The notes: generated by a model not told the origin, from the sequence alone. DNA of 64,000 bases from an uncultured Bacteroidota bacterium (GCA_903844815.1 CAIMVD010000200.1:28110-92109), one strand, 5' to 3'. Counted from the stretch's first letter, positions 424 to 28,185 are shown. Program-made: numbers and translations.

Positions 424-524
424 CCCTTTGTGCCCTTCGTGAAACCCTTTGAGCCCTTTGTGTTTAAAAGAAATCCTTAACCACGAAGGACTCTAAGGGT
501 TTCACTAAGGGCACTAAGGGTTAA
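424..524. repeat. Word-periodic inverted repeat, CCCTTNGTG/CACNAAGGG type, between convergent gene ends
   Basis: The left arm is ccctttgtg|cccttcgtg|aaaccctttgag|ccctttgtg|tttaa (424-467). The right arm, ttaaccacgaagg...cactaaggg|cactaaggg|ttaa (477-524), is its imperfect reverse complement. Confidence 0.8.
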
Positions 525-537
525 ACCATAATACCCT

Positions 538-3234
538 TTATTTCTTATTCAATTCAAGTTCATAACTCCCCGCCAACAAATGGAACGACCCATCCGGTTT
601 GCCGTTAAGCGTTATAGATTCAGGTGCTCCTTGTAATACTGCCTTTTTTAAATTATATCCAACCGGAAGGAACAGATCGGCTGTTGAATTAGCCGGAACA
701 GTAACCGAATAGGTAACACTCTTTTTATTTCTTGTCCACGTTGAAACGATTTCTCCGTAAGGCGAAGTGTGTTTCGCAGATGCTGAGGTCAACCCTTCAA
801 CAAAGTAAGGCCTGAGAATAATATTTTTAAACCCGGGATTCTCCTGATCGGGCTTTATTCCTCCCAGCGCCTTGTAAAACCATGCCCCCGGTTCGCCAAA
901 CATAATGTGATTCAGTGAAATATCGCTCTTGGCGTCTATAGGCCAGTTTTCATATAATGTTGTAGCTCCGTTGACAATCCACCACCCCCATGAAGGAAAA
1001 GTCTCCTGCGACACAAGTTTATAGGCAAGATCAGCATATCCATTCTCGCTCAGGGCATTAAGTATGGCTTTAGAACCAAGCAATCCAACGTCGATGTGAT
1101 TATTGTCGGCAATCACCCTTTTTGCCAGGTTTTCAGCAACTCTCCCTTTCATGTCATCCGGAACCACACCCCAGAGAAGCGGGAAACTAAGCTCAGTTTG
1201 TACCCCTTTCCCATAGATAGCTGTGGTCTTGTCGAGGTATTTATCGTTGATCGCATGCCTGATCTTCGCAGAAAGTGCTGAATATTGAACATAATCATCT
1301 TCCTTTCCGAATAACTTTGCCGCTTTGGAAAGGATAGTGGCATCGGCAAAATAGAAAACAGAAGAGGTAAATTCAACAGGAGTTGTTGATTTGACAGGGA
1401 TCCAGTCGCCGAGCCCCCATGTTGTTAAACCCGAGGGACTAATAGAGGTTATGTAATCTACATATCGTTTAATATTGTCGTAAGTGTCCGAAAGAAGCCT
1501 TGAATCACCATAGAACAGGTAAATGTTCCAGGGAATAACAGCGATTGTGCTTGTCCAGTCAGGACCATTCGCCCAGTGGTAACCCCAGCCACTCGTAGGA
1601 ATAATGGCAGGAAGAACACCGTTCGGCTGTTGTTCATCGCGGTGATCGGCAAGCCATTTCTCATACACAGTAATCCCGTCGAAATTATAAAGAGCTAATT
1701 CAATAGCAATCTGTCCATCGCCTGTCCATCCGTTTTTTTCACGCTGCGGACAGTCGGTGGGATAGCCAAAGAGGTTAGAAAGGTAAGAGCTGTTTGTCGC
1801 TTTCCATAATTTATTTATAACCGGGTTTGATGTAACTATTTCACCAGCGGGAGGAACATCGCTGTGCATGAAAAATCCGGTCAGGTTTTCTGTTGTAAGG
1901 GTTACAGGCTTGCTGCTGACGACCTCTACATACTGGAATCCCTTATAATTGAATAAGGGCATAAAGGTTTCTTCTCCCCTGCCTCCTGCAATAAAAATAT
2001 CAGTCTGGAACGGGTCGAGGTTATCTGTGGGCCTGTAATGAACACTGATGTTCGAAATATCGACCCTTCCTTTGACATCAAGCCTTTCAGCATGTATGAG
2101 TCTGAAAACCGTTCCTGCCTCAGCCTTCACCCTGAACTGCGAAACGCCTGCAATGTTCCTGCCAAGATCAAAAACATTGATTGTATCGTTTATCTTCCTG
2201 ACACTTACAGCCGGGATTTTCTCAACATTCCTGATCGGATGCAGCTGTTGTGAAACAATATTGCCTGAAGGAGCCGAACGGTAAATAATGTCTTCCCATT
2301 TTGAATCATCGAAGCCGGGTGAATTCCATCCTGGCTGTTCGAGGCGGGCATCATAATGTTCTGCGGTATAAATACTATTGAAAACAACCGGTCCGGATGA
2401 TGTTTTCCAGCTTTTATCGGTAATTATAGTTTCGATGGATCCGTCTTCATAGGTTATCCTGAGATCCATGCAGAAGGCCGGCCTGTTGCGCCATGGAGCC
2501 TTGTCGAAAAACCATACAGCCATAGACTGGTGATTATACCATCCGTTTCCAAGAAGCACACCCGCAGCATTTCTTCCGTTCCTTACCTGCGAAGTGACAT
2601 CATAGGAGACGTAGAGGGTGCGTCTGTCGAAACGAGTGTACATCGGATCGAGCCTGTGATTCCCGACTTTCTCCCCGTTAAGGTAGAGTTCGTAGAGACC
2701 ACCGGCAGCTATATAGGCCCGGGCTGATTTTATCTTCCTTTTTACCTCAAATTCCTTTCTGAAATAAGGCGCTTCTTTAACCTGGATTCCATTATCGTCA
2801 CTTATCCATGAACCTTTCCAGTTTCCCATTCCCATCATCCCCGTTTCAAACGACGAAACAGCGGCTGGTGATTTATTACCGTCCTTATCCCAAACCGCAA
2901 CACTCCAGAAGTACCTGGTGAATCCTTTAAGAGGTTTGCCTTTGTATGTAACCAGCATTTGGTCAGAAACTACTTTTTCTGAATCCCAGATATCAGCTTT
3001 CCCTGAAGACAGAGCTGAGGAATCGGTACTTATCATGATCCGGTAAGCCTGTTGATTTGCACCAAACCTGCTGTCGTCAATCATCCACGACAACCGGGGT
3101 ATGGCATCGACCCCTACCGGTTTTACAAGGTATTCGCACCTCAGATTAACCGGAAGGCATGATTGATTCTGGCAAATGGCAAGCGAAAGGTTACTGACGA
3201 GCAGTACCAGCAGAGCAAAAAGGCGTGCTTTCAT
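538..3234 (-). CDS. alpha-L-rhamnosidase, GH78, secreted
   Basis: It carries the GH78-type motif YPTDCPQREKNGWTGD and has a typical length of about 900 aa. I moved the start to the internal ATG at 3234 (MKARLFALLVLLVSNLSLA), which gives a signal peptide. The upstream 36 codons overlap the neighbouring gene. Confidence 0.85.
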   Translation of the reverse strand: MKARLFALLVLLVSNLSLAICQNQSCLPVNLRCEYLVKPVGVDAIPRLSWMIDDSRFGANQQAYRIMISTDSSALSSGKADIWDSEKVVSDQMLVTYKGKPLKGFTRYFWSVAVWDKDGNKSPAAVSSFETGMMGMGNWKGSWISDDNGIQVKEAPYFRKEFEVKRKIKSARAYIAAGGLYELYLNGEKVGNHRLDPMYTRFDRRTLYVSYDVTSQVRNGRNAAGVLLGNGWYNHQSMAVWFFDKAPWRNRPAFCMDLRITYEDGSIETIITDKSWKTSSGPVVFNSIYTAEHYDARLEQPGWNSPGFDDSKWEDIIYRSAPSGNIVSQQLHPIRNVEKIPAVSVRKINDTINVFDLGRNIAGVSQFRVKAEAGTVFRLIHAERLDVKGRVDISNISVHYRPTDNLDPFQTDIFIAGGRGEETFMPLFNYKGFQYVEVVSSKPVTLTTENLTGFFMHSDVPPAGEIVTSNPVINKLWKATNSSYLSNLFGYPTDCPQREKNGWTGDGQIAIELALYNFDGITVYEKWLADHRDEQQPNGVLPAIIPTSGWGYHWANGPDWTSTIAVIPWNIYLFYGDSRLLSDTYDNIKRYVDYITSISPSGLTTWGLGDWIPVKSTTPVEFTSSVFYFADATILSKAAKLFGKEDDYVQYSALSAKIRHAINDKYLDKTTAIYGKGVQTELSFPLLWGVVPDDMKGRVAENLAKRVIADNNHIDVGLLGSKAILNALSENGYADLAYKLVSQETFPSWGWWIVNGATTLYENWPIDAKSDISLNHIMFGEPGAWFYKALGGIKPDQENPGFKNIILRPYFVEGLTSASAKHTSPYGEIVSTWTRNKKSVTYSVTVPANSTADLFLPVGYNLKKAVLQGAPESITLNGKPDGSFHLLAGSYELELNKK

Positions 3235-3256
3235 AAAAACGATATGAGTTAAAAAA

Positions 3257-4567
3257 CTATACTTTTGGCAGATTCCATGGCTCCCTGTAATTAGGTACCA
3301 GGTAGCTGTTTGCATCAATGTCGTTCGTGAATTTAGTCCCATCCCAGATGAGTTTTTTACCCGTCCGGTAAGCTATATTGCCCAGAGCAGAAAATTTTGC
3401 TATGTGCGCTCCTATTTCGATGCTTGCATTGGTATTTGGATTCCTCGATTTAATACATTCCAGGTGGTTTTTCACATGGTTGTCGAGTCCCTGATCGAGT
3501 CCCTTCTTAAGAGGAACAGCTTCCATCCGGGATTTACCATCAACAACCTCAGGGATTACTTCCCATCCGCCGCGGTCAATAACGAGGGTCCCGTTTTCAC
3601 CAACAAAACCAAGTCCGTGATTACGTCCATATGCACCGTCGTTAATACCTATTGCATGATCCCACATAACATTGAACCCGTCAAACTCATAGATTGTTTG
3701 AAGGCTGTCGGGTGTTTCGCATGCGTCATCGGGGTAGCCGTATTTGCCGCCCATTGCCATAATCGATTTAGGGGCAGTAACTCCCATACCGTAAAGTGCA
3801 TAATCGAGAAGGTGAACACCCCAGTCGGTCATCAGGCCACCGGCATAATCCCAGAACCAACGGAAGGTAAAATGAAAACGGTTCCTGTTGAATGGCCGGC
3901 TGGTGGCTGGTCCGAGCCACATATCGTAATCCACTCCTGCAGGTACCGGCTCATCGGGCCGAACCGGGATCGACGGGCACCAGCCCTGATAAGAGAATAC
4001 CCTGACAAGCCTTATCTTTCCCAACTGGCCCGACTGAATAAAATTAACAGCATCCTGCCAGTGAGGATCGCTTCTTTGCCACTGGCCAACCTGGACGACT
4101 CTTTTATACTTCTGTGCGGCTTTAATCATCAGGTTACATTCTTCAATGGTCCTTCCGATAGGCTTCTCACAATACACATCCTTGCCTGCTTCACATGCTG
4201 CAACCATCTGAAGGCAATGCCAGTGGTCGGGCGTGCCAACAATTACAACGTCAATATCCTTATTGTCGATAAGGTTACGCCAGTCCTTATAAAGATGAGC
4301 AGGCTTAGTGCCCCGTAACTTCTCAACCTCAGCAGTCCTTTTACTTAGCACATTCTGGTCAATATCGCACAGTGCCAGGCATTCTACCTGAGGATTCTTC
4401 AGAAACGAGTTAAGGTCACTGAATCCCATGCCGTTACAGCCAATAAGTCCTACATTGATCCTGTCGGATGGAGCACAACCTGCGGCCAAACCTGATAAGG
4501 TAGGTACAAGACCAATGGCTGCTGTGGTTAATGCAGTATTCTTTACAAATTCGCGTCGTGATGTCAT
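3257..4567 (-). CDS. Gfo/Idh/MocA-family NAD(P)-dependent oxidoreductase with twin-arginine signal
   Basis: N-terminal TAT motif SRREFVKNTALTTAAIG. Rossmann start INVGLIGCNGMG. Family signatures TPDHWH and CEKP. Confidence 0.85.
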   Translation of the reverse strand: MTSRREFVKNTALTTAAIGLVPTLSGLAAGCAPSDRINVGLIGCNGMGFSDLNSFLKNPQVECLALCDIDQNVLSKRTAEVEKLRGTKPAHLYKDWRNLIDNKDIDVVIVGTPDHWHCLQMVAACEAGKDVYCEKPIGRTIEECNLMIKAAQKYKRVVQVGQWQRSDPHWQDAVNFIQSGQLGKIRLVRVFSYQGWCPSIPVRPDEPVPAGVDYDMWLGPATSRPFNRNRFHFTFRWFWDYAGGLMTDWGVHLLDYALYGMGVTAPKSIMAMGGKYGYPDDACETPDSLQTIYEFDGFNVMWDHAIGINDGAYGRNHGLGFVGENGTLVIDRGGWEVIPEVVDGKSRMEAVPLKKGLDQGLDNHVKNHLECIKSRNPNTNASIEIGAHIAKFSALGNIAYRTGKKLIWDGTKFTNDIDANSYLVPNYREPWNLPKV

Positions 4568-4719
4568 GATTATTATAGTCTTTAATTTTATTTAAAATTG
4601 ATCTGTATAGAAAATTCAAATAAAAGTACAGATTTTTTCAGATTTAAACGGGGAGAAGATTGCAATTAACAATATTTCACATCTTAAATTAAAGTAGCTA
4701 CACTTCATCTCCCTGAAAA

Positions 4720-4819
4720 AAGAACTTACACTGAGAGACACAGAGGAACACAGAGTAACACAGAGTTTTTTAACTCTGTGATCTCTGTGCCACTCCGGAT
4801 TTCCTCTGTGTAAGTTCTT
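4720..4819. repeat. Word-periodic inverted repeat, CACAGAG/CTCTGTG type
   Basis: The left arm aagaacttacac tgagagacac agaggaacac agagtaacac agagtt is followed by a tttt loop. The right arm is aactctgtg atctctgtg cc...cctctgtgtaagttctt. The outer 12 bp (aagaacttacac / gtgtaagttctt) and the inner 9 bp pair perfectly. Confidence 0.85.
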
Positions 4820-4844
4820 AAATACCAATAATTTGAACACTACA

Positions 4845-6830
4845 TTAAAGATTTACCTTAACAGATTCTCCATCACGGATAAGTTTATTCACTATTTTCT
4901 TATTTACCGAATCAGTTACAACAACCCTGATTTTATCTTTTTCACGGCTAATGTTTATGCTGAAGGAAGAATTGAATCCATTGACTTTATTCAGGCTAAT
5001 TTCCGGCCACTCCGACGGAAGCCGGGGAGTTAAGGAGAAGGAACTGAGACCTTCAGGTCGAATCCCGAAAATTCCTTCGGTAATGATACGGCAAAAAAGA
5101 CCGCTCTCGGCTGAAAGATGACGCTGGCTTCCCTCCGGCCAGGCCTCGATTGCATAGGGCACATGTTCACCCAGGAGCCGCTGACCTGCATAGTATGAAA
5201 GATAATTAAGTGCTTTTTCTGTTTCACCTGCGGCAAAAACGCCTCTCAGTGCATACAAAGTTGAACGGTCCCAAAAGGTTTCGCTTCCTGCCTGGGTCAG
5301 AAGCCCATCCTTTGTCCATAATACCGGAGAGAAAAGGGCATCGATTGTCCCCCTGGCTCTTTCTGTAATACCTGTTACAAGCGGCATGCAGATCCACGAC
5401 CTGAGAACTGTATTGCCATCATAATACCTGTAAGTTTCAAAACCATTGATGTTAGCTTCGAAATACCTGTTAATAGCCGTCCTCAGCTTTTCAGCATCTT
5501 TCCTGTATGAAGTAAGCTGTGATCCGTTTTTTCCAAGATCTTTACCCAGAAATGATGCAGACAACAGGGCATCATAATAAAGAGTCGAAGTGCAGAGATT
5601 AGCCTTGCCGGCGGGAAATCGTCCCTCAAGTTCATCTGAGTCGGATGTGACAACACCTTCGTTATTCACTTTCCGTCGGCAATACTCAAGGCACCACTCA
5701 ATAAGAGGCCACAGTTTCTCTGATTCAGTCTTATCGCCCCTTACAAGGGCATACCTGGCAGCACCGTAGGCAATCATGGCAGCATCGCCCCTGTCGCCTG
5801 CCCCGTTCCAGATATCTTTTCCCTCGGCTATAATGGAACTGGGGATTGGCTTATAATCAGCATTCATGAACCTTGCAAAATGCTGATAGGCATTGAAGGA
5901 AGCCTCATTGCCGGTCTTATACCCGAGATAGGGAAAGAAGGGACCCACATATTCAGCCTGGTCGTTCGCCCAAATAGCGGCGTAATACGACTCCCCACCG
6001 GGTCCGTGCATAAGTCCCCCGCTGGTGCGATAAATACTTTCAGAAGCCCTTATCTTTGCAAAGGCGAACATCTTATTAAGGGTTTCATCGGGTGATTCAA
6101 ACACCAGTGAACTCCACATCTGTTTTACAAATGCGCTTCTGGCCGTAAATTCCTTGTCGATATCGGGCGACGCAGTAACCTGATTGCCAGGGTTACCTGA
6201 GATGTAAACATAAAATCTAACTGACTCTCCGGGCTTAAGTTCAAAAACACCGTTATTCTGTATGGCGATTGTAATCGTATAACTTCCTTCCACTCCTTTT
6301 GCGGCGTCGGTTGTGTAAACTGTTTTCTGAACGGGAACTGTAAGGGTTACAGGTCTGCCTGAATTATTCTTTACAGAATATCTTTCGCACAGCATGGGAA
6401 GTGTGGTCGAAGGAAAGATCTCTCTTGTGATCTCAACCGCCACCGGCAATTTATACCCGCTAACAACCGTCAGTATTCCGTTTAGTGATATCGATTCCAC
6501 TTTTTCATTTTGAAGGGTTCCCCCGTTTACCGTGAGAAGAGAGGGTATGTCGATAGCATATTTCTGCATCAGGCTGGCATGGGTATTGTTCGGGATGGTA
6601 CGAAGCATGGGCCACACCATCGAGCGCTCGAGGCTGAAAGAGCCATCGCTTTTTACTCCATACCGCAATACTGTTGAAACCTGTTCTCCGCTCATCTCAA
6701 TATGATCAAAATGTGGAAGATCTTCCTTAACCTCCCATCTGATCGATCCGTCGGTCTGCACTTTCCATCGTGTCTGTCCAGAAAGACAAAACGGAATAAT
6801 TAATAAGCTGACAATTAACAACTTCCTCAT
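4845..6830 (-). CDS. secreted putative six-hairpin (alpha/alpha)6 glycoside hydrolase-like protein, family not recognised
   Basis: Signal peptide MRKLLIVSLLIIPFCLSGQ. The C-terminal two thirds resemble debranching-enzyme or six-hairpin proteins in composition (GGESYYAAIWANDQAEY...). It lies in an operon with GH genes. The family call is weak. Confidence 0.45.
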   Translation of the reverse strand: MRKLLIVSLLIIPFCLSGQTRWKVQTDGSIRWEVKEDLPHFDHIEMSGEQVSTVLRYGVKSDGSFSLERSMVWPMLRTIPNNTHASLMQKYAIDIPSLLTVNGGTLQNEKVESISLNGILTVVSGYKLPVAVEITREIFPSTTLPMLCERYSVKNNSGRPVTLTVPVQKTVYTTDAAKGVEGSYTITIAIQNNGVFELKPGESVRFYVYISGNPGNQVTASPDIDKEFTARSAFVKQMWSSLVFESPDETLNKMFAFAKIRASESIYRTSGGLMHGPGGESYYAAIWANDQAEYVGPFFPYLGYKTGNEASFNAYQHFARFMNADYKPIPSSIIAEGKDIWNGAGDRGDAAMIAYGAARYALVRGDKTESEKLWPLIEWCLEYCRRKVNNEGVVTSDSDELEGRFPAGKANLCTSTLYYDALLSASFLGKDLGKNGSQLTSYRKDAEKLRTAINRYFEANINGFETYRYYDGNTVLRSWICMPLVTGITERARGTIDALFSPVLWTKDGLLTQAGSETFWDRSTLYALRGVFAAGETEKALNYLSYYAGQRLLGEHVPYAIEAWPEGSQRHLSAESGLFCRIITEGIFGIRPEGLSSFSLTPRLPSEWPEISLNKVNGFNSSFSINISREKDKIRVVVTDSVNKKIVNKLIRDGESVKVNL

Positions 6831-6878
6831 ATATTAAATTTTTTAAAGAGTTATAAAGCCTGTAGAAAAAAATTCTTT

Positions 6879-8465
6879 TCATTTCCTGTATTTCAACGCA
6901 CCGATATCAAAGACGGTATCTGTTGAAAGATCTGTTCCGGCGATGTCGGTAGCTCCGGGATCAATATTAATTAACTGTTCAAGATCCAATCCCCTGCCAA
7001 TTAGCGGAGAACCGGATTTCAGACTAAAAGCCATAAGGTCATCCTTATTTAGTTTTACGGTTCCGGAAGGCAAAAATCCTGAAGGATCAACAAGCCTTGG
7101 ATCAGCATAAAAACCGGCCATTCTTCCATCAAGCATTTCATTTGATGTAATGGCTGCCCATTCACCGAGATCCTTAAACCCTGCAATCGATCTGTCGCCT
7201 GAAAGATTAAAGTAACAGTTTCCCTGGAAAAGTTCGGAAACAAGTCTTGCTCCGGGGATCAGGAAGGCCTCTTTGAAAACAAAAATATTGCTGAAGAATC
7301 GGAATCCGGTAGCGTTGTTTTCGATCGTTAAGGAATATCCTCTTTGAGTTGAATTATAAAAGGTATTGTTATAAATATCACAATTACGCATTGTCATTTC
7401 AGGAGAACCGCGCCATATCGCAACGGATCCTCCGTTTAATGATCCGTCATTCAGACTGATACAATATCTTAAAGTATTATTCTCCCATGGTTTCCCGGCG
7501 CCGAATTCAAAGAGCCCGTATCCTCCTCCCTGATTGTTATACGACAAACAGTACTGAATAACCGAATTTGAAACCCCTCCATCAAGATCGAAGCCTCCAC
7601 CGTCCTTTGCCACCGGGTTCGTTTTATTATCGTGCGAAATGCAATACTGTATTTTGAAATCATTACAATCCCAAATCCAGATTCCTACCGGACCATTCCC
7701 GGTCCATTGCATATCCCAGCCATTGTTAAATGATTCACAGTACTCAATTACGCCCCGGTTCACAGATGAGGCAAGTATCCCGCTACCACTGTGATTATTC
7801 AGAACTGTCGGATCGCCCGGATTATTCTCAGTAAGGCAATATCCGATATAAATATCTTCATTGTCAAAATTCAGGGGATCGTACGCTGTGTTACCATCGA
7901 CTAGTATTCCTGCAAATCCGTTATCATGTGAATGTACATTGGTTATCTGAACATCATTGCATTTATAAACATGTAACCCTGAATGCTGAAATCCTGAAAT
8001 TTCGAGTCTGTCAATCCGGAGATGGTCTGAGCCGGCGATAAACACCCCATCGGTAATGTTTCCATCCTTCCTGCCAGCACCTGTTAGCATAAGATCTTCA
8101 ACATTGAAATAATCACAGGCATTTACTTCAATACCAGCTGATAAGCCTCCATCTATGGTTGCCTTTCCGGTACCAAACGATTTTATTGTAACTTCTTTCC
8201 CCTCGGTGCCTGAATCGAGCGAATCGAGCTTAATGGTTCCCGGGAATACAGAACCGCCTTCCAGGAATAAAGTATCACCCGGACTAAGGTCTAAAGTGTT
8301 AACTTTTGTGACAGTCTGCCATGGTTTCTCCTTTGTACCCGGGTTGACATCATTGCCTGAAGCGCTTAAATAGTAGCATCCTACCTGTACTTCCGGAGCA
8401 TTCTTGCAGCAGGTCAGTAAGAAAAAGATTCCAAAACAAATAACTAACAGAGCCTGGTTCTTCAT
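6879..8465 (-). CDS. lipoprotein with right-handed parallel beta-helix (pectate-lyase fold) repeats
   Basis: Lipobox FFLLTCC. Repeated short N/G/D-rich turns are typical of beta-helix coils (NGWDMQW, DGGGFDLDGG, SYNNQGGGYG). Confidence 0.6.
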   Translation of the reverse strand: MKNQALLVICFGIFFLLTCCKNAPEVQVGCYYLSASGNDVNPGTKEKPWQTVTKVNTLDLSPGDTLFLEGGSVFPGTIKLDSLDSGTEGKEVTIKSFGTGKATIDGGLSAGIEVNACDYFNVEDLMLTGAGRKDGNITDGVFIAGSDHLRIDRLEISGFQHSGLHVYKCNDVQITNVHSHDNGFAGILVDGNTAYDPLNFDNEDIYIGYCLTENNPGDPTVLNNHSGSGILASSVNRGVIEYCESFNNGWDMQWTGNGPVGIWIWDCNDFKIQYCISHDNKTNPVAKDGGGFDLDGGVSNSVIQYCLSYNNQGGGYGLFEFGAGKPWENNTLRYCISLNDGSLNGGSVAIWRGSPEMTMRNCDIYNNTFYNSTQRGYSLTIENNATGFRFFSNIFVFKEAFLIPGARLVSELFQGNCYFNLSGDRSIAGFKDLGEWAAITSNEMLDGRMAGFYADPRLVDPSGFLPSGTVKLNKDDLMAFSLKSGSPLIGRGLDLEQLINIDPGATDIAGTDLSTDTVFDIGALKYRK

Positions 8466-8534
8466 AAGAGGAATAGATTTCAGAGTAAAAACCTGAATCC
8501 ATATAGTTCATGCCTTTTCAGGTTTAAATACAAA

Positions 8535-8648
8535 TTAAGAATCTCTGTGGATCTCTGTGTCTTTCCTCTGTGGATCTCTGTTTAACAATATGTTAAGAAC
8601 TTACACAGAGTTACACAGAGAGGCACAGGTTACACAGAGATTCTTAAG
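8535..8648. repeat. Word-periodic inverted repeat, CTCTGTG/CACAGAG type
   Basis: The left arm is ttaagaatctctgtg gatctctgtg tctttcctctgtg gatctctgtttaac. The right arm is ttaagaacttacacagag ttacacagag aggcacaggt tacacagagattcttaag. The outer 15 bp pair perfectly. Confidence 0.85.
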
Positions 8649-8656
8649 TCAAAAAT

Positions 8657-9781
8657 CTATTTAACAGAAAATCTGTAAATGGTTGTCGACTTAAGCGTCT
8701 CACCCGGGTTGATGATTGTGGAAGGGAATTCCGGACGATTCGGACTGTCGGGATAATGATCAGATTCAAGGCACATACCAGCCCTGTAATTAAAAACCTT
8801 TCCGCCATGGCCCGACTTGGTTCCGTCGAGGAAGTTCCCTGTATAGAGCTGCATTCCGGGCTGATCGGTGATAACTTCCAGCATACGGCCACTTACAGGT
8901 TCGTAGACAGTAACATCAACTTCTTCCTTATTATCAAGGATATAATTATGATCATAACCTTTGCCAAGGATGAGCTGATCATAGTTCTCCCCTATTCTTT
9001 CACCAATTTTATGTGGTGTTGTGAAGTCGAACGGGGTACCAGCCACCTGCCTGATCTCTCCTGTTGGTATCATGACAGAATCAACCGGTGTGAAAGCTGA
9101 GGCTTTCAGGGTAAGTTCATGATCGAGGACATCTCCGTTACCTGCACCGTGCAAGTTAAAGTAGGCATGATTTGTAACATTCACGATTGTTTTCTTGTCG
9201 GTAGTCCACTCATAGTTCATCACAATCTCGTTATTGTCGGTCCAGGTATAAGTAACTGATACCTTTACGTTCCCTGGGAAACCCTCTTCCATATCGGGGC
9301 TCAGGTAGCTGAATTTGACCGAAGATGAATCCTTTTCCGCATGTATTTCTGTATCCCAAACAACGCTGTGCCATCCTTTTGGCCCTCCATGAAGAGTATT
9401 GGGCCCATTATTGAGCGGAGTTGTGTACTCAACCCCATCGATTGCGAATTTGCCTTTGGCTATCCTGTTTGCAAAGCGTCCGACAACTGATCCGAATGAC
9501 ATATCGCCATTGACAGTCTCTTCGAAAGTGTCGTAGCCAAAAGTAATGTTGTCCATTTTACCATTTTTATCAGGAACCTCTATCCAGTTGATCTTAGCCC
9601 CGAAATTTGTCAGCCTTATTACATTTCCGGCTTTGTTTCTGAGAGTGATGAGATAAACTTCCTTACCATCGTGAGTTCCGAACAAATCTTTTTTAACCAT
9701 CTGACCGGTTTTTGATGACTGGTTGCAGGACATTGATATTAAAGTAACCAGTGCAAGCGATAACAGGAGGATTTTTTTCAT
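8657..9781 (-). CDS. galM: aldose 1-epimerase (galactose mutarotase), lipoprotein form
   Basis: Mutarotase motifs NTLHGGPKGW and TNHAYFNLHG. Lipobox LISMSC. Confidence 0.9.
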   Translation of the reverse strand: MKKILLLSLALVTLISMSCNQSSKTGQMVKKDLFGTHDGKEVYLITLRNKAGNVIRLTNFGAKINWIEVPDKNGKMDNITFGYDTFEETVNGDMSFGSVVGRFANRIAKGKFAIDGVEYTTPLNNGPNTLHGGPKGWHSVVWDTEIHAEKDSSSVKFSYLSPDMEEGFPGNVKVSVTYTWTDNNEIVMNYEWTTDKKTIVNVTNHAYFNLHGAGNGDVLDHELTLKASAFTPVDSVMIPTGEIRQVAGTPFDFTTPHKIGERIGENYDQLILGKGYDHNYILDNKEEVDVTVYEPVSGRMLEVITDQPGMQLYTGNFLDGTKSGHGGKVFNYRAGMCLESDHYPDSPNRPEFPSTIINPGETLKSTTIYRFSVK

Positions 9782-9886
9782 GGTGCTAATTGATAAATAT
9801 TTGCTAATGTAATAGTTATGTTATTGATCAGGTTTCGTGATAATAAACTGAAATATACAAACTCAGCCGGGTAAAGCATAAATTAA

Positions 9887-11890
9887 TTACTTCGTCCTGA
9901 ACTGCCAGGCCGGGAATCCTGCCTTATTAAAAAGGGAAGCTTCCGAACCATTTCGCCAGCAGTATCTTACCGAAACAGGTTGACTTACAGAAGGCGAAGA
10001 GACTATTACTTCGTTTTCAGCAATCTCAGCCTTTGCCTTTACCCACTTTCCATCAGTACCTGCGACTTCAAATTCATTCAGATTTTTCCCTTTTCCAACC
10101 AGTCCGTCTTCGGCATTGTCAAACTTAAGTCTTGCAAGGTTTTTTTCTATAGTAACAGATTTAAAAACAGGTCCGATACTATTGTATTTAACACCATAAT
10201 CGTTATTCAGAGCCAGCATAGCAAGTCTTTCGCCCACTCCTTTTTTGTCTGGCGGATGTATGTTCATTACAGTTGCGATATCGAGGGTCGAAACCATTCC
10301 GGTTTTGGCCAGCTTAAGGGCTTTTTCCTGTGATTCGCGCAGGAAGGCAGATTCAGTGGAGTCGACATTTGAATATACATAGGGTGCTATCTGTACAAAA
10401 TAGAAAGGAAAATCAGGAAGACCCCATTCCTCTCTCCAGTTTTGAATCATTGCAGGAAATATCTTATCATACTGTGCTGACCGGCTGACATTTGATTCTC
10501 CCTGGTACCATATGGCACCTTTTATTGTATAAGGAACAACAGGCTTTACCATACCGTTGTACAGAACAGAAGGTGTTCCTGCACCAAGTGATACAGGCCT
10601 TTTAATCGTTTTGAAGTCATTTTTTCCGAGGCCGAACAGATAAAACCTGCTGCCTGAATACTCGGCAACCGGCTGATATTTCCATTCTCCGTTAAGAGGT
10701 AGGTAGACTTTACTGTTGTTCTTCACAGTGAGTTTCATTTTTTCGGGTGCGCCGTAAATACCTCCACCGCCCTGGGTATCGATTACCCTGACTGAGATCA
10801 GGTTAGTTCCTGCTTTAACCAATGATGCAGGGACATCATAGAGCCTGTCGGCCTGCCACTTTCCGGTTTCTTCAGTAGAGCCGACAAGAGTGCCGTTAAA
10901 AAATGCACGGTCCATATCATCAATAGGACCAAGTGAAAGAATCAGATCCTTTCCGGTCATCTCCGGTCCTAATTCAACCTGTTTCCTGAACCAAACAGCT
11001 CCGTCAAATTCACCCGTCGATTTCTCAAACTGTGAAGGAAGCTCAATTACGGGCCATTCACTATCGCTATATTGTTCAGAGGAAGCGGTTTCATCATTGA
11101 ATTTCAGATCCTTATATTGATCGACACCTGCCGCTGAGGGAACTACCTGTTCCAGGCTGTGGAGCCAGGCTTCGTATACTGCCAGCAGTGGCACAGACTC
11201 TTTTATTGCTTTTATTTCAGGTACGAATTCCCCGCAATTTTCAAGCGCTGAGGATGACGTCCAGGATTCTGAAGGTGTTCCTCCCCAGGCTGATTCAATC
11301 AATCCTACAGGGACCTTTAGCTCAGAGTACAATTTCCTTCCAAAAAAAGTGGCAGTGGCGCTGAAAGGCGCTGCTGTTTCCGGACTGCTGATCTCCCATT
11401 TTCCGATGCAATCCTCAAGAGGCTCACCCGAAATCTTTTTCTGAACATTAAAAAGCCTTATCTCATTAATTGCAGATGAAGAAATTGTTTGAGAAGAGTG
11501 CATAATTGTATCATTCGGAGGCCAGCCCGCCAGTGGCATTTCCATATTCGACTGCCCGGAGCAGAACCATACTTCACCAACCAGAACATTATTAACAGTT
11601 ATTGTGGTGTCGTTGGAGGATATTTTTAAAGTATACGGACCACCAGCCTCAGGAACAGGCAATATCACCGCCCATTTTCCAGCTTCAGAGGATTTTGTTT
11701 TAGCGGACTTATTCCAGCTCGCCTCAACTGTAATTTTATGACCTGGAAGGGCTTTGCCCCAGATTTTTGCATCAGTTTTCTGTTGCAAAACCATATTATC
11801 GCCGATAAGGGACGGCAATTTCAGGTCCGACGGGCCCTGACAGCCGGTCAGAGCCAGAAAAGAAATAATTAAAATTGATAAAAATCTCAT
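9887..11890 (-). CDS. sialate O-acetylesterase-like SGNH carbohydrate acetylesterase
   Basis: Motif GEVWFCSGQSNMEMPL is characteristic of the 9-O-acetylesterase (DUF303) family. Lipobox ALTGC. Confidence 0.8.
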   Translation of the reverse strand: MRFLSILIISFLALTGCQGPSDLKLPSLIGDNMVLQQKTDAKIWGKALPGHKITVEASWNKSAKTKSSEAGKWAVILPVPEAGGPYTLKISSNDTTITVNNVLVGEVWFCSGQSNMEMPLAGWPPNDTIMHSSQTISSSAINEIRLFNVQKKISGEPLEDCIGKWEISSPETAAPFSATATFFGRKLYSELKVPVGLIESAWGGTPSESWTSSSALENCGEFVPEIKAIKESVPLLAVYEAWLHSLEQVVPSAAGVDQYKDLKFNDETASSEQYSDSEWPVIELPSQFEKSTGEFDGAVWFRKQVELGPEMTGKDLILSLGPIDDMDRAFFNGTLVGSTEETGKWQADRLYDVPASLVKAGTNLISVRVIDTQGGGGIYGAPEKMKLTVKNNSKVYLPLNGEWKYQPVAEYSGSRFYLFGLGKNDFKTIKRPVSLGAGTPSVLYNGMVKPVVPYTIKGAIWYQGESNVSRSAQYDKIFPAMIQNWREEWGLPDFPFYFVQIAPYVYSNVDSTESAFLRESQEKALKLAKTGMVSTLDIATVMNIHPPDKKGVGERLAMLALNNDYGVKYNSIGPVFKSVTIEKNLARLKFDNAEDGLVGKGKNLNEFEVAGTDGKWVKAKAEIAENEVIVSSPSVSQPVSVRYCWRNGSEASLFNKAGFPAWQFRTK

Positions 11891-11916
11891 GGTGCTTATT
11901 TATTTATAGGTTTGGG

Positions 11917-12020
11917 TTAACCACTGATGCGCAAAGTTAAAGCAGAGAGTGCTGAGGAAAAGTGAAGTTTATCAAAACTCTGCGACCTCAATTCTTTATC
12001 TCTGCGAACTTTGCGGTTAA
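11917..12020. repeat. Word-periodic inverted repeat, GCAGAG/CTCTGCG variant
   Basis: ttaacc...gcgcaaagtt aaagcagagag... on the left faces ...ctctgcgacc...tctctgcgaactttgcggttaa on the right. The TTAACC/GGTTAA ends and AACTTTGC arms are complementary. Confidence 0.7.
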
Positions 12021-12042
12021 TGGATTTCAACTTTCTTATAAT

Positions 12043-15231
<3,189 letters not shown>

Positions 15232-20398: not shown

Positions 20399-20422
20399 TT
20401 TATTCTATTTATGTTACTGTCA

Positions 20423-20479
20423 TTTGTGATCTGCGTATTGTTTTAATGCCACGAAGGCGCGAAGACGCTAAGGATCAAA
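20423..20479. repeat. Short degenerate member of the CCTTCGTG/CACGAAGG repeat type
   Basis: tttgtgatctgcgt... faces ...ccacgaaggcgcgaagacgctaaggatcaaa. It shares the ccacgaagg and ctaagg words with the 424-524 element. Arm pairing is only partial. Confidence 0.4.
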
Positions 20480-20484
20480 TATGG

Positions 20485-22155
20485 TTACATACCAAACTCG
20501 ATCAGATTGCCAAGTTTCTTATACTTTTCGAACAGGGCTTCATATTTTTCAGCTCTGACCGGGTCGGGCTGGTATTCCTTTTCAGAACCTCCGCCCATTG
20601 CTGTCTGAGCCGAGGAGATGTCGGGATGTATACCGGCAACCACGGAAGCTGCCATTGCCGAACCAAGTGCACAAGTCTGATCAGAACTTGCCACCCTGAT
20701 TGGCATATTGAGAACGTCGGCAACTATCTGCATCACGAATGGATTCTTTTTCGCAACCCCTCCGATAGCAATAACTTCGTCGATACGTACTCCTTCGGAA
20801 ACAAACCTTTCATTAATCATTTTCGATCCGAATGCCGTTGCTTCAACAAGGGCCCTGAAGATCCTCGGAGCATCCGATCCGAGAGAGAGACCGGTGATTA
20901 ATCCTTTAAGATTCTGATTGGCATCGGGTGTGCGCCTTCCATTCATCCAGTCGAGGGCGAGTATTGAAGTTTCTTCAACAGGGATGGACTCTGCCTGTTT
21001 GCTTAATTCCGCAATCATCCGGCCCGAAGCTTCCTCAGCTATCCTCGTTCTGGATGATTCGTCCAGCCAGGTCATTTCACCAATAAGGTTAGTTACAGGC
21101 CACATAAGCAGGTTGCTGAACCATGCGTAAATATCGCCGAATGCCGATTGTCCGGCTTCAAGACCAACCATACCCGGAACTATCGACCCGTCGACCTGAC
21201 CACAAATACCGGCAACAAGCCTGTCGCCAAACTCTTCGGCAGGTATTATAATCATGTCGCATGTTGAAGTTCCCATGACCTTTACGAGGTGGTATGGTTT
21301 GATCTCACCGCCCACTGCTCCAAGATGAGCATCGAACGATCCTGCTCCGACCTTAACGTCAGTTGTCAATCCGAGTTTTGCTGCCCATTCGGGTGAGAGG
21401 TTCCCTGCGACAACATCGCAGGTATAAGTTTCTTTATATAAACGCTCCCTTAAACCCGAGAGCAGGGGATCAAGCATTGATAGGAATTCCTCATCGGGAA
21501 GGCCATTAAAATCTTCGTGCCACATAGCCTTATGACCGGCTGCACACCGGCTTCTTTTAAGCTGAAGCGGATCTGTGTTACCTGTAAGAAGTGCCGGTAT
21601 CCAGTCACAATGCTCTACCCAGGAGAAGGCATTCTTCCTCACCTCTTCACTGTTGCGAAGAACATGCAACACCTTGGCCCAGAACCATTCCGATGAGTAA
21701 ATACCGCCTTCATATTTGGTAAAGTCGGTGCCTCCCCATTTTCCTGAGAGCTCATTTATCTCCGAAGCCTCTTTCACGCCTGTATGGTCTTTCCACAGTA
21801 CGAACATTGCATCAGGATTTTCTGCAAATTCAGGCTTTAACGACAGGGGTACTCCTTCGCTGTCAACAGCAACAGGAGTTGATCCGGTGGTGTCGACCGA
21901 GATTCCTGCAATATTTTTTACTGTTTCATCTGATAAACCTGCAAGAGCCTCTTTTACTGAATGTTCCAGCCCTTCTACATAGTCGAGGGGGTGCTGCCTG
22001 AAACGGTTTCCCGAAGGATCGCAGTAGAGACCCTTTTTCCATCGCGGATATTCAAATACCGATGAGCCAACAATATTACCAGTTGAAGCATTTGCAACAA
22101 CCGACCGGACCGAATCGGTTCCGTAATCAATCCCAATAACATATTTATCAGCCAT
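20485..22155 (-). CDS. araB: ribulokinase
   Basis: FGGY kinase N-terminus YVIGIDYGTDSVR. Length 556 aa. Adjacent to araD and araA. Confidence 0.9.
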   Translation of the reverse strand: MADKYVIGIDYGTDSVRSVVANASTGNIVGSSVFEYPRWKKGLYCDPSGNRFRQHPLDYVEGLEHSVKEALAGLSDETVKNIAGISVDTTGSTPVAVDSEGVPLSLKPEFAENPDAMFVLWKDHTGVKEASEINELSGKWGGTDFTKYEGGIYSSEWFWAKVLHVLRNSEEVRKNAFSWVEHCDWIPALLTGNTDPLQLKRSRCAAGHKAMWHEDFNGLPDEEFLSMLDPLLSGLRERLYKETYTCDVVAGNLSPEWAAKLGLTTDVKVGAGSFDAHLGAVGGEIKPYHLVKVMGTSTCDMIIIPAEEFGDRLVAGICGQVDGSIVPGMVGLEAGQSAFGDIYAWFSNLLMWPVTNLIGEMTWLDESSRTRIAEEASGRMIAELSKQAESIPVEETSILALDWMNGRRTPDANQNLKGLITGLSLGSDAPRIFRALVEATAFGSKMINERFVSEGVRIDEVIAIGGVAKKNPFVMQIVADVLNMPIRVASSDQTCALGSAMAASVVAGIHPDISSAQTAMGGGSEKEYQPDPVRAEKYEALFEKYKKLGNLIEFGM

Positions 22156-22220
22156 ATCCTGGTTTTTATAAGTTATGTATGTTAAAAATAACGTTTCGTT
22201 TCTATTTTACCCGGAGATAA

Positions 22221-22913: not shown

Positions 22914-22954
22914 ATTTCAGTAATTCTAAACCCATAACTAATCACTCCATCAAC

Positions 22955-22990
22955 TTTAGACACTTTAGACACTCCAGACACTTTAGGCAC
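22955..22990. repeat. Tandem 9-bp direct repeat array (TTTAGACAC x4, two variants)
   Basis: The array reads tttagacac|tttagacac|tccagacac|tttaggcac. It ends 1 bp from the stop codon of the Nudix regulator gene. I found no inverted partner arm. Confidence 0.75.
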
Positions 22991-22991
22991 T

Positions 22992-23693
22992 TCAATTAAC
23001 CTCCAGATTAAAATAAAACCCATCCTCCTTAAGATGCTCAATTCTGTCTTTATTAAACCTGTAATAGAATGCCCCTTTCTTTGACGTAACTGTCTCTTTC
23101 TCATCGAGTTTTTCGAGAATTCCCATTGATAATATTTTCTTCCTGAAATTTCTCCTGTCGATCTGCCTTTGATAAATAGCTTCATAAAGATCCTGAAGAT
23201 GTACCAGGGTGAATTTTTCAGGAAGCAGCTCAAAACCGACCGGAGCTATTTTAACCTCAGCCTGTAAGTCAGCAAGGGCTTTTTTCACCATTTCGGCGTG
23301 GTCGAATATAAGTTCGGGAAGCCTGTTAAGTGACCTCCAGTTAACGCCAGTATTTTCAACAATTTCAGGGTCGATATCCCTAATCGAGATCAGTGCCCAG
23401 TAGGCAATTGAAATTACTCTATCGCCTGGATCCCTGCCAGTATCGCCATAGCAGTATGACTGCTTCATGTAAATTGATTCGAGACCTGTAAGTTTCCGCA
23501 GGATTCTTGATGCAGCAGCCCCGAGGCTCTCATCTTCTTCCACAAATCCTCCTGTGAGAGACCATTGCCCTTTTGCCGGCTCAATTATTCTTTTGAACAG
23601 CAAAAGTTTGATCTCCTTCTCAAGCAGATCATAACCGAAAATTACACAGTCAACCGCAACAAGATGCCTGGCCCGATCGTGATATGATTTCAT
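22992..23693 (-). CDS. Nudix-domain transcriptional regulator (NrtR family, Bacteroides AraR-like)
   Basis: Degenerate Nudix box GGFVEEDESLGAAASRILRKLTG followed by a C-terminal winged-helix-like half. The gene is embedded between araA and araD, as described for Bacteroides AraR. Confidence 0.75.
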   Translation of the reverse strand: MKSYHDRARHLVAVDCVIFGYDLLEKEIKLLLFKRIIEPAKGQWSLTGGFVEEDESLGAAASRILRKLTGLESIYMKQSYCYGDTGRDPGDRVISIAYWALISIRDIDPEIVENTGVNWRSLNRLPELIFDHAEMVKKALADLQAEVKIAPVGFELLPEKFTLVHLQDLYEAIYQRQIDRRNFRKKILSMGILEKLDEKETVTSKKGAFYYRFNKDRIEHLKEDGFYFNLEVN

Positions 23694-23740
23694 TTATTTA
23701 GGTCAGTTACCGGTAAAAAAAGCACAATTTCTTCCCGGTA

Positions 23741-25234
23741 TCAGATGATGCCGGCCGAAATATGATAAAACAACTCGTTCCATCTCAATTCCTTTTTGAA
23801 GGACGAGAGTTCGCATTTCTCATCTATCAGGACATATTCCACGCCCATCATTCCTGCGAAGTCCTCGAGATATTCTGAACTAATTGAGGTACTGAAACCG
23901 GTATGATGAGCTCCTCCGGCGAGTATCCAGGCTTCAGCAGCCCTTTTTAAATCGGGAAGCGGTTTCCACAGAACGCTTGCAACCGGGAGATTTGGCATAT
24001 CGGGGCACTCCGAAACCTCAACTTCATTTACTATCAGTCGGAACCTGTTTCCAAGGTCAATCAGTGAAGCATTCAAAGCTTTCCCGGGAGCTGTTTTGAA
24101 GACCAGCCTGGCAGGATCATTTTTACCCCCTATCGAAAGCGGGTGCACTTCAATAGTGGGCACATTCTGAGCTATGGAAGGACATACTTCAAGCATATGA
24201 GCGCCAAGCACCTTCATGCCTGCAGGATCCATATGGTAAGTATAATCCTCCATGAAAGAAGTACCGCCATTAAGTCCATCAGCCATAACCTTCATGGAGC
24301 GCACAAGGGCGGCCGTCTTCCAGTCACCTTCGGCGCCAAAACCATAACCCTTTGCCATTAATCGCTGTACTGCCAGGCCCGGCAGCTGCTTAAGCCCGTG
24401 GAGATCTTCAAAAGTTGTGGTGAATGCCTTAAAATTACCGTTATTAAGGAATTGCTCCATACCGGCTTCTATCCTGGCTGACTCTTTCAGCGTTTCAGAT
24501 GAAGCGACTTCTTTTGTCAATTTATATTCCGAATTATATTCCTCAAGCAGCTTTTTTATTGTGTCCTCGTCAACGGCATTCACATATTTCACCAGGTCGC
24601 CAATGCCGAAACCATATACAGAATATCCCATTTGAATCTGCGCACTGACCTTATTTCCCTCTGTTACAGCAACATCGCGCATATTATCGCCAAACCTGGC
24701 TACCTTCATATTCAGGGCATCATGGTAGGCGGCTGCCACCCTTATCCATACACCGATTTTGTCAATAGTTTCAGGATCTTCAAAATGGCCGACAACAACC
24801 TTTCTGTTCAGCCTCATCCTTGTGCCGATAAATCCGAATTCACGGTCACCATGGGCAGCCTGGTTCAGGTTCATGAAATTCATATCAATCGAATTCCATG
24901 GAATATCCCTGTTCAGCTGAGTATGTAAATGGAGAAAGGGCTTATTCAGGATCGACAAACCCCTTATCCACATTTTTGCAGGGGAGAAAGTATGCATCCA
25001 TGTTATAAGACCTATGCATTTCTTTGAACTGTTTGCCTCAGAACACAGTTCGGTGATTGATTCGGGTGTTGTAAGCACCGGCTTGAATATCACTTTTACG
25101 GGTATCACTGCTGACTTGTCGAGCGAAACGGCTATTGCCAAAGAATCATCGGCAACCTGTTTAAGAGTTTCCGGACCATAAAGATGCTGGCTTCCCGTAA
25201 CAAACCATACTTCCTGATTATTATATATTTCCAT
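23741..25234 (-). CDS. araA: L-arabinose isomerase
   Basis: The 497-aa product is collinear with AraA ([13 protein letters not shown] ... [13 protein letters not shown]). Confidence 0.92.
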
Positions 25235-25277
25235 TTTAAATTATGTAAAAGTTTAAATCAATACTATTTCAGGCAGT

Positions 25278-26930: not shown

Positions 26931-27161
26931 AATAATTTCTTTTGATAATGAAGATCAGAATTTGTAATTTCTTTTTTATAAATCAGGTAAAATAATCGTT
27001 TCAGAAAGCCAACAGATTTTCAAAAACTTAATGTTTTTACCAAACAAATCTATAAAAAAAAAACTTAAAGTGTACTATATACATTTAAAATATTCTGAAA
27101 TATTACAAGAAGAAAGATAACCGGATTATAGTGCTGATTAAGAGTGTAAAAGCAATTTGGA

Positions 27162-27971
27162 TTATTGCCATTCATTCAGCGAAGACTGAATGAAATCAAT
27201 AATTTTCTGATTTTCGCTCTTCCCGTTGCCTTTAACAAAAAATGGTTCCCCGAATTTAAAATGAATGTGTTTACTGACATCGATGGGTCCCAGTTCCTTT
27301 ATTATCTTTCCATTCCCCCAGAAATCTGTTTTCAGCGCGACCGGAACAACTTTCACCCCTGCCTTCCTTGCAAGCTTAACTCCAAGTGAATTAAACTCCT
27401 CAGGCTTAAATTCAACGCTTCGGGTACTCTGAGGGAAGATAATTATGGAGATCCCTTTTGACAATAATTCCATTCCTTTTGTCATAACAGTCTCAAAATC
27501 CTTTCTGGGGTCGATACGGCCTACCACAATCGGATTCCGTGAAAGCATGACATCTTTAAAAAGCGGATGCCTGACAAGGCTGTCCTTTACAACAAATGTG
27601 GTCTCCCGGTAAGGACTGACAATACATGGCAGTACCATGGTTTCGAGGGTGCTCATGTGATTGCCGATAAAAAGCAAGGGTCCTTCCGGACTGATCATGT
27701 TCTCCATACCTGTGATATGGAATTTTCCGCCGGCAGACTCTATAAAACTTAAGATCTCAAAAGATGAATCGATCCAGGCCTGCGTATCGTATTTCTTTTT
27801 TATAGCCTGTTTCCGCGTTCCTAAAACAACTTTTGCATACCTGATGGAAAAGTAGAGACGGTTGTTGTGAATAACTTTGTCCCACAACGAAAGGTGTTCT
27901 TTTTCAGGAGTATTATAATCGAATGAATCAAAATAGCTTTTGTACATAGACAGGGATTTATACATTGTCAT
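27162..27971 (-). CDS. lysophospholipid (1-acyl-sn-glycerol-3-phosphate-type) acyltransferase family protein
   Basis: Acyltransferase motifs NHMSTLE (HX4D/E) and IIFPQSTRS (FPEGTR-like). Confidence 0.65.
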   Translation of the reverse strand: MTMYKSLSMYKSYFDSFDYNTPEKEHLSLWDKVIHNNRLYFSIRYAKVVLGTRKQAIKKKYDTQAWIDSSFEILSFIESAGGKFHITGMENMISPEGPLLFIGNHMSTLETMVLPCIVSPYRETTFVVKDSLVRHPLFKDVMLSRNPIVVGRIDPRKDFETVMTKGMELLSKGISIIIFPQSTRSVEFKPEEFNSLGVKLARKAGVKVVPVALKTDFWGNGKIIKELGPIDVSKHIHFKFGEPFFVKGNGKSENQKIIDFIQSSLNEWQ

Positions 27972-28140
27972 CCGAAATAATAATGACTACACAAAGTTAA
28001 TTCATTTCTGACAATCAAAAAATTATCATATTTCTGAAGTATGACGGATTAAAAACTCATTTTCTTTTAAAACCTTTCGCTCTTAATAAATTTGCTTAAT
28101 TTGTATCCATTGATTCAATACTAATATTAATTTTTGCAAA

Positions 28141-28185
28141 ACCTTCATGCCCTTTGTAATACCTTCGAGTCCTTTGTGTTTAATA
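28141..28185. repeat. Half-copy (left arm only) of the CCTTTGTG-type element
   Basis: accttcatg|ccctttgta|ataccttcgag|tcctttgtg|tttaa aligns unit for unit with the left arm at 424-467 (one indel, few substitutions). No right arm follows. It ends 14 nt before the ATG at 28199. Confidence 0.7.

Follow-up and report, generated by a model that had tools for sequence, protein, structure and literature searches.

A dispersed family of intergenic palindromic repeats built from one degenerate heptamer in an uncultured Bacteroidota bacterium, with a possible role at transcript ends

The question raised by one stretch of DNA from an uncultured Bacteroidota bacterium (GCA_903844815.1 CAIMVD010000200.1:28110-92109) is whether intergenic hairpins that are composed of short tandem words, but spelled differently from place to place, are one kind of element, and whether it is their structure or their wording that is kept. 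The stretch, referred to below as the window, is 64,000 nucleotides (nt) long and was analysed as a whole. Near its start lies element A (424-520), in which tandem units face complementary units across a short loop, and far downstream lies what appears to be a copy of only half of it (28141-28183). An earlier description, made by a model from the DNA alone (the sequence-only reading), likened element A, its half-copy and the elements at 11917-12020 and 20420-20479 to a set of hairpins with CACAGAG words. All of these belong to a single family of palindromic repeats dispersed through intergenic DNA. Elements were detected with a degenerate word-cluster scan; a strict search for exact words, a blastn self-comparison and an ungapped search for hairpins each recovered only a minority of them, and sliding RNAfold was too noisy. 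Fold z-scores given below are relative to shuffled sequence, with 200 shuffles in the case of element A.

Element A is an imperfect hairpin of two 44-nt arms that are 86% complementary and are separated by a 9-nt loop, with four units of 9, 9, 12 and 9 nt to the arm, in a CACNAAGGG dialect with a period of 9 nt. Read on the plus strand, the left arm (424-467) is made of CCCTTTGTG, CCCTTCGTG, AAACCCTTTGAG and again CCCTTTGTG, followed by TTTAA, and is the complement of CACNAAGGG words; the loop (468-476) is aagaaatcc; and the right arm (477-520) runs TTAAC, CACGAAGG, A, CTCTAAGGG, TTT and two copies of CACTAAGGG, facing the left arm with one T.T mismatch in each unit. The tandem-unit hairpin grammar ascribed to this element is therefore real: its RNA fold (-58 kcal/mol, z = -9.9) was equalled by none of the 200 shuffles, and the opposite strand reaches z = -9.2. 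It had also been credited with ends that contain TTAA, which holds for both loop-side ends and for the outer right (521-524), but not for the outer left.

The half-copy, likewise on the plus strand, reads ACCTTCATG, CCCTTTGTA, ATACCTTCGAG, TCCTTTGTG and TTTAA. As the sequence-only reading had seen, it can be aligned with an arm of element A unit by unit, down to the odd third unit (spacer plus GAG) and the TTTAA at its end, and it is the window's top match to either A arm (Smith-Waterman scores of 26 and 24; shuffled windows reach 15 at most); its true end is at 28183, the end given earlier being 2 nt too long. This solo arm has no partner and no fold (z = +0.2), lies between divergent genes, where it stops 15 nt upstream of the ATG at 28199, and is kept in a strain-level relative (L100, 98%) with one base changed. 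Two TTTG motifs 20 nt apart can be picked out in it by eye; in the Bacteroidetes promoter consensus the motif spacing is 27-29 nt.

What unites the elements is their vocabulary. Every element type in the window is a dialect of the degenerate heptamer CRCNRAG (CACAGAG, CACNAAG(GG), CGCAGAG or CGCAAAG), in which C1, C3, A6 and G7 are invariant, position 4 is free, and the only variable positions are 2 and 5, which change by transitions only. The pattern CRCNRAG-N2/3-CRCNRAG has 17 matches in the window where about 0.07 would be expected, and these cover all element types and nothing else; word clusters number 9, against 0-1 in shuffles, with a density of about one element per 7 kb. An arm typically holds 3-5 copies of the heptamer and usually starts with TTNACC, and two inverted arms form an imperfect hairpin of about 100 nt, alongside which single arms and three-arm clusters are found. 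The claim that one architecture is written in variant words is thus borne out across the elements of the window, and the companion claim, that the words drift or are swapped, has to be divided: within the window they are neither swapped nor arbitrary, all being CRCNRAG, but in other genera the grammar is filled with unrelated words. Units recur every 8-11 nt, at a period that depends on the dialect (10 nt with xGAG and 8-9 nt with xAAG words), so the helical phasing that had been proposed is not a general property. Similarly, the suggestion that TTAA might be a target-site duplication at the element borders was rejected, because TTAA belongs to the inverted terminus TTNACC...GGTNAA (TTCACC...GGTGAA in the L084 contig). 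Several dialects can stand next to each other within single arrays, as in locus L083, where composite repeats of one orientation (2950-3080, 5620-5790, 9480-9590 and 10480-10790) mix CACAGAG, CGCAGAG, CACAAAG, CACGAAG and CGCAAAG words and each terminate in a small conserved hairpin, CATTCCTTCGGAATG.

The family is dispersed by more than its words. One fixed module, in which TTAAM is followed by a CAC unit, then a CTC unit, the spacer TTT and two CAC units, is common to both arms of element A, the half-copy, the orthologous element in L099 (a 316-kb contig, described below) and locus L082, the last being the single further copy in a metagenome scan. Among the CACAGAG elements, five drawn from the window and L099 can be aligned over their full length, and the alignment runs through their non-word loop TAAGTTCTTAAC-TAATTG-TTA. 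Because unit order and loop sequence are common to different loci, whole arms and whole elements have evidently been copied between loci, and local slippage alone cannot be the source of such shared detail. Arms can also exist or decay on their own, as had been supposed from the half-copy; this is seen at 28141-28183, at L099 8229-8270, and at 62282-62316, which is degenerate opposite 62336-62374. Of the concerted change within arms that had been offered as an alternative to selection there are only hints, namely an arm-specific fourth base and parallel change in adjacent units when the window is compared with L099.

Comparison with related loci indicates how long such copies last. L099, whose rhamnosidase is 86% identical, is syntenic with positions 1-15000 of the window and carries an A-type element at the orthologous place with the loop unchanged, a counterpart of 8535-8647 (L099 4436-4541), and, at the junction orthologous to 4720-4819, a BIME-like cluster of three alternating arms (purine, pyrimidine, purine; L099 8222-8440). 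The first arm of this cluster carries an inserted small hairpin, TCCCGATAGCTATTGGGA. In the less similar L102 (75% protein identity), 3855-3934 is the counterpart of 20420-20479 with word order unchanged, and 1281-1327 is the counterpart of the solo array at 22953-22992. A full A-like hairpin of CACTAAG/CACAAAG words lies between the aldolase and sugar-kinase genes of L102 (2019-2114), and the corresponding window junction (22156-22220) is without an element, so elements are occasionally gained or lost. Across the orthologous sites this makes one gain or loss, with five other sites conserved, and copies thus persist at orthologous gene junctions across species. Over three orthologous pairs, the defined word positions are identical at 106/120 sites (88%) and spacers plus loops at 105/151 (70%; Fisher p = 2e-4), with the free fourth base identical in 11/20 cases (55%). 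The sequence-only reading had argued against selection on one specific sequence; that argument is not supported, as the words outlast the spacers and the spacers of the CACAGAG type are unpaired. Since those spacers neither pair nor covary, constraint on the sequence of the word is, if anything, favoured.

Further hints come from the intergenic lengths of close relatives (124, 110, 77 and 198 nt), which are known from gene maps alone; in such maps 124, 110 or 77 nt separate the rhamnosidase from the gene that follows it. Contigs with close homologues of the sialidase-like gene are all short, at 1.1-3.8 kb (window genes compared: 538-3234 and 28199-29269). Assemblies that break at the repeats and an element A of varying length may lie behind the short contigs and the varied spacers. 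The window's species is absent from the GTDB representative genomes, where the closest rhamnosidase is 72% identical (Bacteroidales and Prolixibacteraceae metagenome-assembled genomes (MAGs)), and it is present in ENA and Logan metagenome assemblies.

Beyond close relatives, the heptamer CRCNRAG together with the terminus TTNACC/GGTNAA recurs in loci from Bacteroidia, Chitinophagia and Sphingobacteriia. The carriers are Bacteroidales MAGs (L004, L020), a Chitinophagaceae MAG (L015), Draconibacterium (L038), Prolixibacteraceae MAGs (L064, L077), Mucilaginibacter (L066) and Mariniphaga (L076), and outside the window 9 of 80 loci hold 14 clusters between them, where shuffles average 2.8. The density in carrier loci is about one element per 100 kb, versus one per 7 kb in the window. 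Two IMG/VR contigs have a different, MITE-like layout (MITE, miniature inverted-repeat transposable element): in L084 (1182-1633) and L098 (7569-7750), perfect inverted arrays of 27-30 nt, made of three CACAGAG words with spacers included and ending in TTCACC/GGTGAA, bound 125-400 nt of other DNA, which in L084 consists of three tandem copies of a 135-nt unit. The same grammar is written with unrelated words in Niastella (L060 3070-3156), Odoribacter (L075 220-384), Tannerella (L017 12752-12867) and Chitinophaga (L010 6857-7109), examples being TAATGTGATAAT, AGATTTGAA, ATTCAAA and TGATTTTTA, and there are near-family words that likewise begin with CAC (CACATAG, CACAGAT, CACATTAG and CACAGGTG). 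In the Mariniphaga locus (L076 12720-12900), a GGTCTAAGTRATTGA repeat adjoins a perfect hairpin.

If structure is kept, the two arms of a hairpin should follow each other, and at the variable positions they do. In a sample of 61 words from 21 hairpins and at least 10 taxa, position 2 pairs between the arms as A-T in 37 and as G-C in 16 cases with no cross pairs, and position 5 as A-T in 23 and G-C in 31 cases with only 3 G-T; the arms thus match each other's dialect, and the compensatory changes that had been suggested as a check are present. Given variation by transitions only in arms that covary, the path from one dialect to another would be expected to run through G.U intermediates. The match does not extend to the whole unit. 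The free fourth base is unpaired in 23 of the 61 words, and the CACNAAG dialect combines CACTAAG in one arm with CACAAAG in the other, which results in one T.T or A.A mismatch per unit; element A and L102 2019-2114 show this independently of each other. Hairpins of the CACAGAG type are paired along their 7-nt words and open into 3x3 internal loops at the 3-nt spacers, which do not covary. Among the three A-type hairpins there are four double changes, mostly beside the loop.

The place of the elements relative to genes is as regular as their wording. The 27 clusters whose context could be assigned comprise 1 within coding sequence, 10 at convergent junctions, 16 between genes on the same strand and none at divergent junctions, and elements lie 10-90 nt downstream of stop codons. 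The window contains 36 intergenic regions of at least 25 nt, of which 9 fold at z <= -2.5, namely seven word-array elements and two unique hairpins; all nine hold the 3' end of a gene. In more distant relatives, the 3' end of the rhamnosidase is followed by classical hairpin-plus-U terminators (L061, L065, L071, L079 and L080) or, in L064, by another word hairpin. A role as Rho loading sites (YC dimers every ~9.5 nt) was discounted, since the arrays are neither C-rich nor G-poor and pair with their complement.

Our preferred, though tentative, interpretation, which we rate slightly below an even chance, is that the family consists of REP/BIME-like or MITE-like repeats that would act as transcript-end hairpins. 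Specifically, the elements would most likely act in the transcript as 3'-end hairpins, a role proposed because they lie 10-90 nt past stops, where relatives carry ordinary terminators. Such hairpins would slow or stop read-through and block 3' exonucleases, and would in this way fix how strongly adjacent genes in sugar-utilisation clusters are expressed relative to one another, with the pairing between arms being maintained by selection, or by template switching between arms. That the words are kept for pairing fits the transition-only variation and the perfect matching of the arms.

Several observations weigh against this interpretation. A U-rich tail follows only 4720, 8535 and 62282 (minus strand), no U-tract follows A, 11917, 33995 or 59162, and a simple terminator scan returned no more sites than shuffles. 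The covariation terms of RNAalifold are slightly unfavourable (+1.7 for the CACAGAG type; +1.9), with the spacers unpaired. Hairpins between genes on the same strand fold better by 2-8 kcal/mol on the antisense than on the sense strand in 11 of 13 elements (taken from the window, L099, L082, L004, L015, L020 and L066), with 37 versus 21 G.U pairs (sign test p = 0.022), contrary to what selection on a hairpin in the sense mRNA predicts; this asymmetry fits neither the pairing nor the recognition view in simple form. No RAYT or other mobilising gene was seen in the 64-kb window, and structure alone leaves the recurrence of the heptamer across three classes unexplained.

Among the alternatives, the one that survives best, even if it is on balance unlikely, is that the elements are simply MITEs, whose arrays would be terminal inverted repeats with several transposase sites, whose position at gene ends would be that of tolerated insertions, and whose effect as hairpins would be incidental. 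The perfect inverted arrays around unrelated internal DNA in L084 and L098, identical down to their spacers, are what such elements would look like, and the conservation of the TTNACC/GGTNAA terminus across taxa, the non-word sequence common to dispersed copies, the presence/absence difference between the window and L102, and the breaking of relatives' contigs near these genes all agree with it; MITEs that bear tandem repeats are, moreover, known in Porphyromonas (PMC4596501). Yet no target-site duplication was found at A, 8535, 59162, 62282, the L099 copies or L084, where TTAA or TTCA/TGAA are inverted and not direct; no autonomous insertion sequence (IS) with matching ends was found in the window or the fetched loci, nor any transposase in the window beyond an IS1595 zinc-ribbon open reading frame (ORF). 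In many copies the termini face the loop instead of pointing outward, and old orthologous copies retain their words while the spacers drift, unlike the ends of dead transposons.

That last pattern, with free spacers and a free fourth base between conserved words, leads to a reading that appears less probable again, in which the words are sites recognised by a conserved Bacteroidota factor, the array is the functional unit, and the hairpin is a by-product of having two orientations. Its target could be double-stranded DNA, single strands or RNA, and the protein itself might, for instance, serve the nucleoid, be gyrase-like, or work in termination or RNA processing. That words are kept for recognition fits the recurrence of the same degenerate heptamer in Bacteroidia, Chitinophagia and Sphingobacteriia (14 clusters in 9/80 loci), the CAC start of the near-family words, and the conservation of solo arrays between species. 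On the other hand, no candidate factor was found, the 8-11 nt period means that binding to one face of B-DNA is not general, the exact dialect match between arms is needless for independent binding sites, and other genera use unrelated words in the same grammar. A wider version of the idea, to which we likewise attach a low probability, is that CRCNRAG arrays with TTNACC would form a phylum-wide class of cis-elements, read by a conserved putative factor and marking the ends of genes or operons; the candidate could then be a termination, RNA-processing, nucleoid or domesticated-transposase protein, the arrays would replace or accompany ordinary terminators, and the dialects, the per-unit mismatch and the strand asymmetry would be functional.

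That the hairpins are a neutral by-product, in which slippage would duplicate a stem segment and template switching would copy it to the other arm so that terminators grow into tandem-unit hairpins, is quite improbable: the grammar recurring with unrelated words in other genera, the homogenised arm opposite a degenerate partner (62282-62374), the arm-specific fourth base with parallel changes in adjacent units and the dialect match between arms speak for it, but it leaves unexplained both the dispersed copies with common unit order and loop and the one heptamer recurring across classes, and the non-complementary spacers and per-unit mismatch persist where template switching should erase both.

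The remaining members of the family in the window, all given here as read on the plus strand, differ in type and state of preservation. The window has a SusC/SusD pair (45287-50327), many glycoside hydrolases (GH) and an arabinose cluster with an AraR-like regulator, and the elements are located in the arabinose and rhamnose clusters and beside glycoside hydrolase genes. The CGC-dialect hairpin at 11917-12020 runs from TTAACC (11917-11922) through CGCAAAG, GCAGAG and GCTGAG to CTCTGCG, CTCTGCG, CTTTGCG and GGTTAA (12015-12020), in agreement with the GCAGAG/CTCTGCG words between TTAACC and GGTTAA that had been reported there; it folds more weakly than element A (z = -4.2) and lies past the stop of a GH2 gene (12043-15213, minus strand). 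The degenerate member at 20420-20479 consists of the decayed words ATTTGTG and ATCTGCG, a loop, and then CACGAAGG, CGCGAAGA and CGCTAAGG. It closely follows the stop codon of a sugar kinase gene (20485-22155, minus strand). The short degenerate hairpin described there is present insofar as three tandem words (CACGAAG, CGCGAAG and CGCTAAG) face two decayed ones, but it folds no better than shuffles (z = -0.8).

Hairpins of the CACAGAG type come with either arm first. The purine arm leads at 4720-4819, with AAGAACTTA and three CACTGAG/CACAGAG words before the loop and three CTCTGTG words and TAAGTTCTT after it, and at 33995-34080, which has the variant words CACTGAG and CAAAGAG / CTCCGTG. The pyrimidine arm leads at 8535-8647, where 4+4 words with unpaired 3-nt spacers are enclosed by perfect 15-nt outer inverted repeats (TTAAGAATCTCTGTG), and at 59162-59263, in a convergent gene junction. 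In the hairpin at 62282-62374, the homogenised right arm is made of four copies of ACACAGAGG. A decayed element at 52760-52830, absent from the list of the sequence-only reading and also in a convergent junction, has CACTGAG, CACAAAA and CACAGAG followed by CTTCAGTG and CTCTTGG. A further word forms the solo tandem array at 22953-22992 (GACACTTTA four times, then ATTAACC), between the stop of the AraR-like (NrtR-family) regulator gene and the aldolase gene, reading TAAAGTGTC on the gene strand. The word includes AAAGTGT, which is a half-site of the AraR operators of Bacteroides thetaiotaomicron, where AraR binds a semi-palindrome (PMC4666351); here it occurs as direct repeats and not as a semi-palindrome.

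Some neighbouring features deserve mention in their own right. Element 59162-59263 sits just past the end of a GH116 glycosidase gene (59337-61233, minus strand) that is split into two overlapping ORFs, 59686-61233 with the N-terminal domain and 59337-59819 with the catalytic end, likely a frameshift or pseudogene. The IS1595-related ORF (38140-38592, plus strand; 150 amino acids) encodes just the zinc-ribbon domain of such transposases, without the DDE domain, and is followed at a convergent junction by a unique hairpin with a 25-bp stem (38602-38653). As to curated RNA families, Rfam 15 has no family that reaches its gathering score for any element (entire window, with a permissive search of 1-12500), and the elements have only sub-threshold matches, to miRNA-precursor models, that is, generic hairpins. 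The sole family in the window to reach its gathering score is the DUF805 RNA (RF03081; 56812-56878, plus strand; 59.4 bits against 51.1), upstream of a TM2/zinc-ribbon gene (56890-57279).

The family has both practical and general interest. Should the elements shape the ends of transcripts, the expression of adjacent genes relative to each other would be set by them, a layer of control that has hardly been studied in Bacteroidota. At the density seen here they probably break metagenome assemblies, and since a simple word pattern finds them cleanly, annotation is easy. One heptamer recurring across three classes raises the testable question of a conserved trans-acting factor, and the family amounts to many natural replicates of arm covariation, which are useful to separate selection on pairing from template-switch repair.

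A full-text literature search found no published description of these repeats, an absence that is no proof of novelty, and they are best placed by comparison with known systems. REP, REPIN and BIME elements are high-copy intergenic imperfect palindromes of Proteobacteria, mostly found after gene ends and within operons, for which protection of mRNA 3' ends, termination and protein binding have been proposed as roles. The present elements resemble them as short, high-copy, intergenic imperfect palindromes that occur as singlets, inverted pairs and alternating clusters and persist at orthologous sites. They differ in that an arm is composed of 3-5 heptamer words (35-45 nt) and not of one 20-40 nt palindrome, a single word not being palindromic; in that 414-530 contains no GTAG/CGTC tag or complement, the conserved terminus being TTNACC; in that the 64-kb window holds no ORF matching the Y1 transposase (RAYT); and in that the host phylum is Bacteroidota. 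Iteron or centromere-like arrays, such as plasmid parC, share with the elements short words at about one helical turn in two blocks, but a replicon has only one such array, to which a known partner encoded alongside binds; the present elements recur about every 7 kb of chromosome, and their words have a period of 8-11 nt. Intrinsic terminators likewise place a stable hairpin some tens of nt past a stop, and relatives have theirs at the same place, but the stems here have 35-45 pairs with regular mismatches or 3x3 internal loops, often lack a U-tract, and are repeated in sequence across loci.

Among tandem heptamers, the cyanobacterial STRR and TAACTGA repeats are likewise intergenic arrays in which one specific 7-nt word recurs, and they are patchily distributed among taxa; TAACTGA repeats, known from Beggiatoaceae, Cyanobacteria and a few Bacteroidetes, are contiguous and direct, lie mostly just 5' of start codons and are almost never inverted (PMC4679880), while the words here are 8-11 nt apart, paired with an inverted array and located past stop codons. 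Bacterial MITEs (Correia, ERIC and BOX/RUP, and BrickBuilt and MITEPgRS of Porphyromonas gingivalis) are similarly intergenic, about 100 to a few hundred nt long, with inverted ends and hairpin transcripts, and some of those of Porphyromonas carry internal tandem repeats (PMC4596501). Terminal inverted repeats are present here too (15 nt at 8535/8647; 27-30 nt in L084 and L098), but neither a target-site duplication nor a matching IS was found for these elements, the words form the inverted ends themselves and not an internal minisatellite, and the termini often face the loop. Because they have neither the palindrome and tag of REP sequences nor the target-site duplication of MITEs, the elements are assigned to neither the REP/REPIN nor the MITE family, and are a variant of intergenic palindromic repeats.

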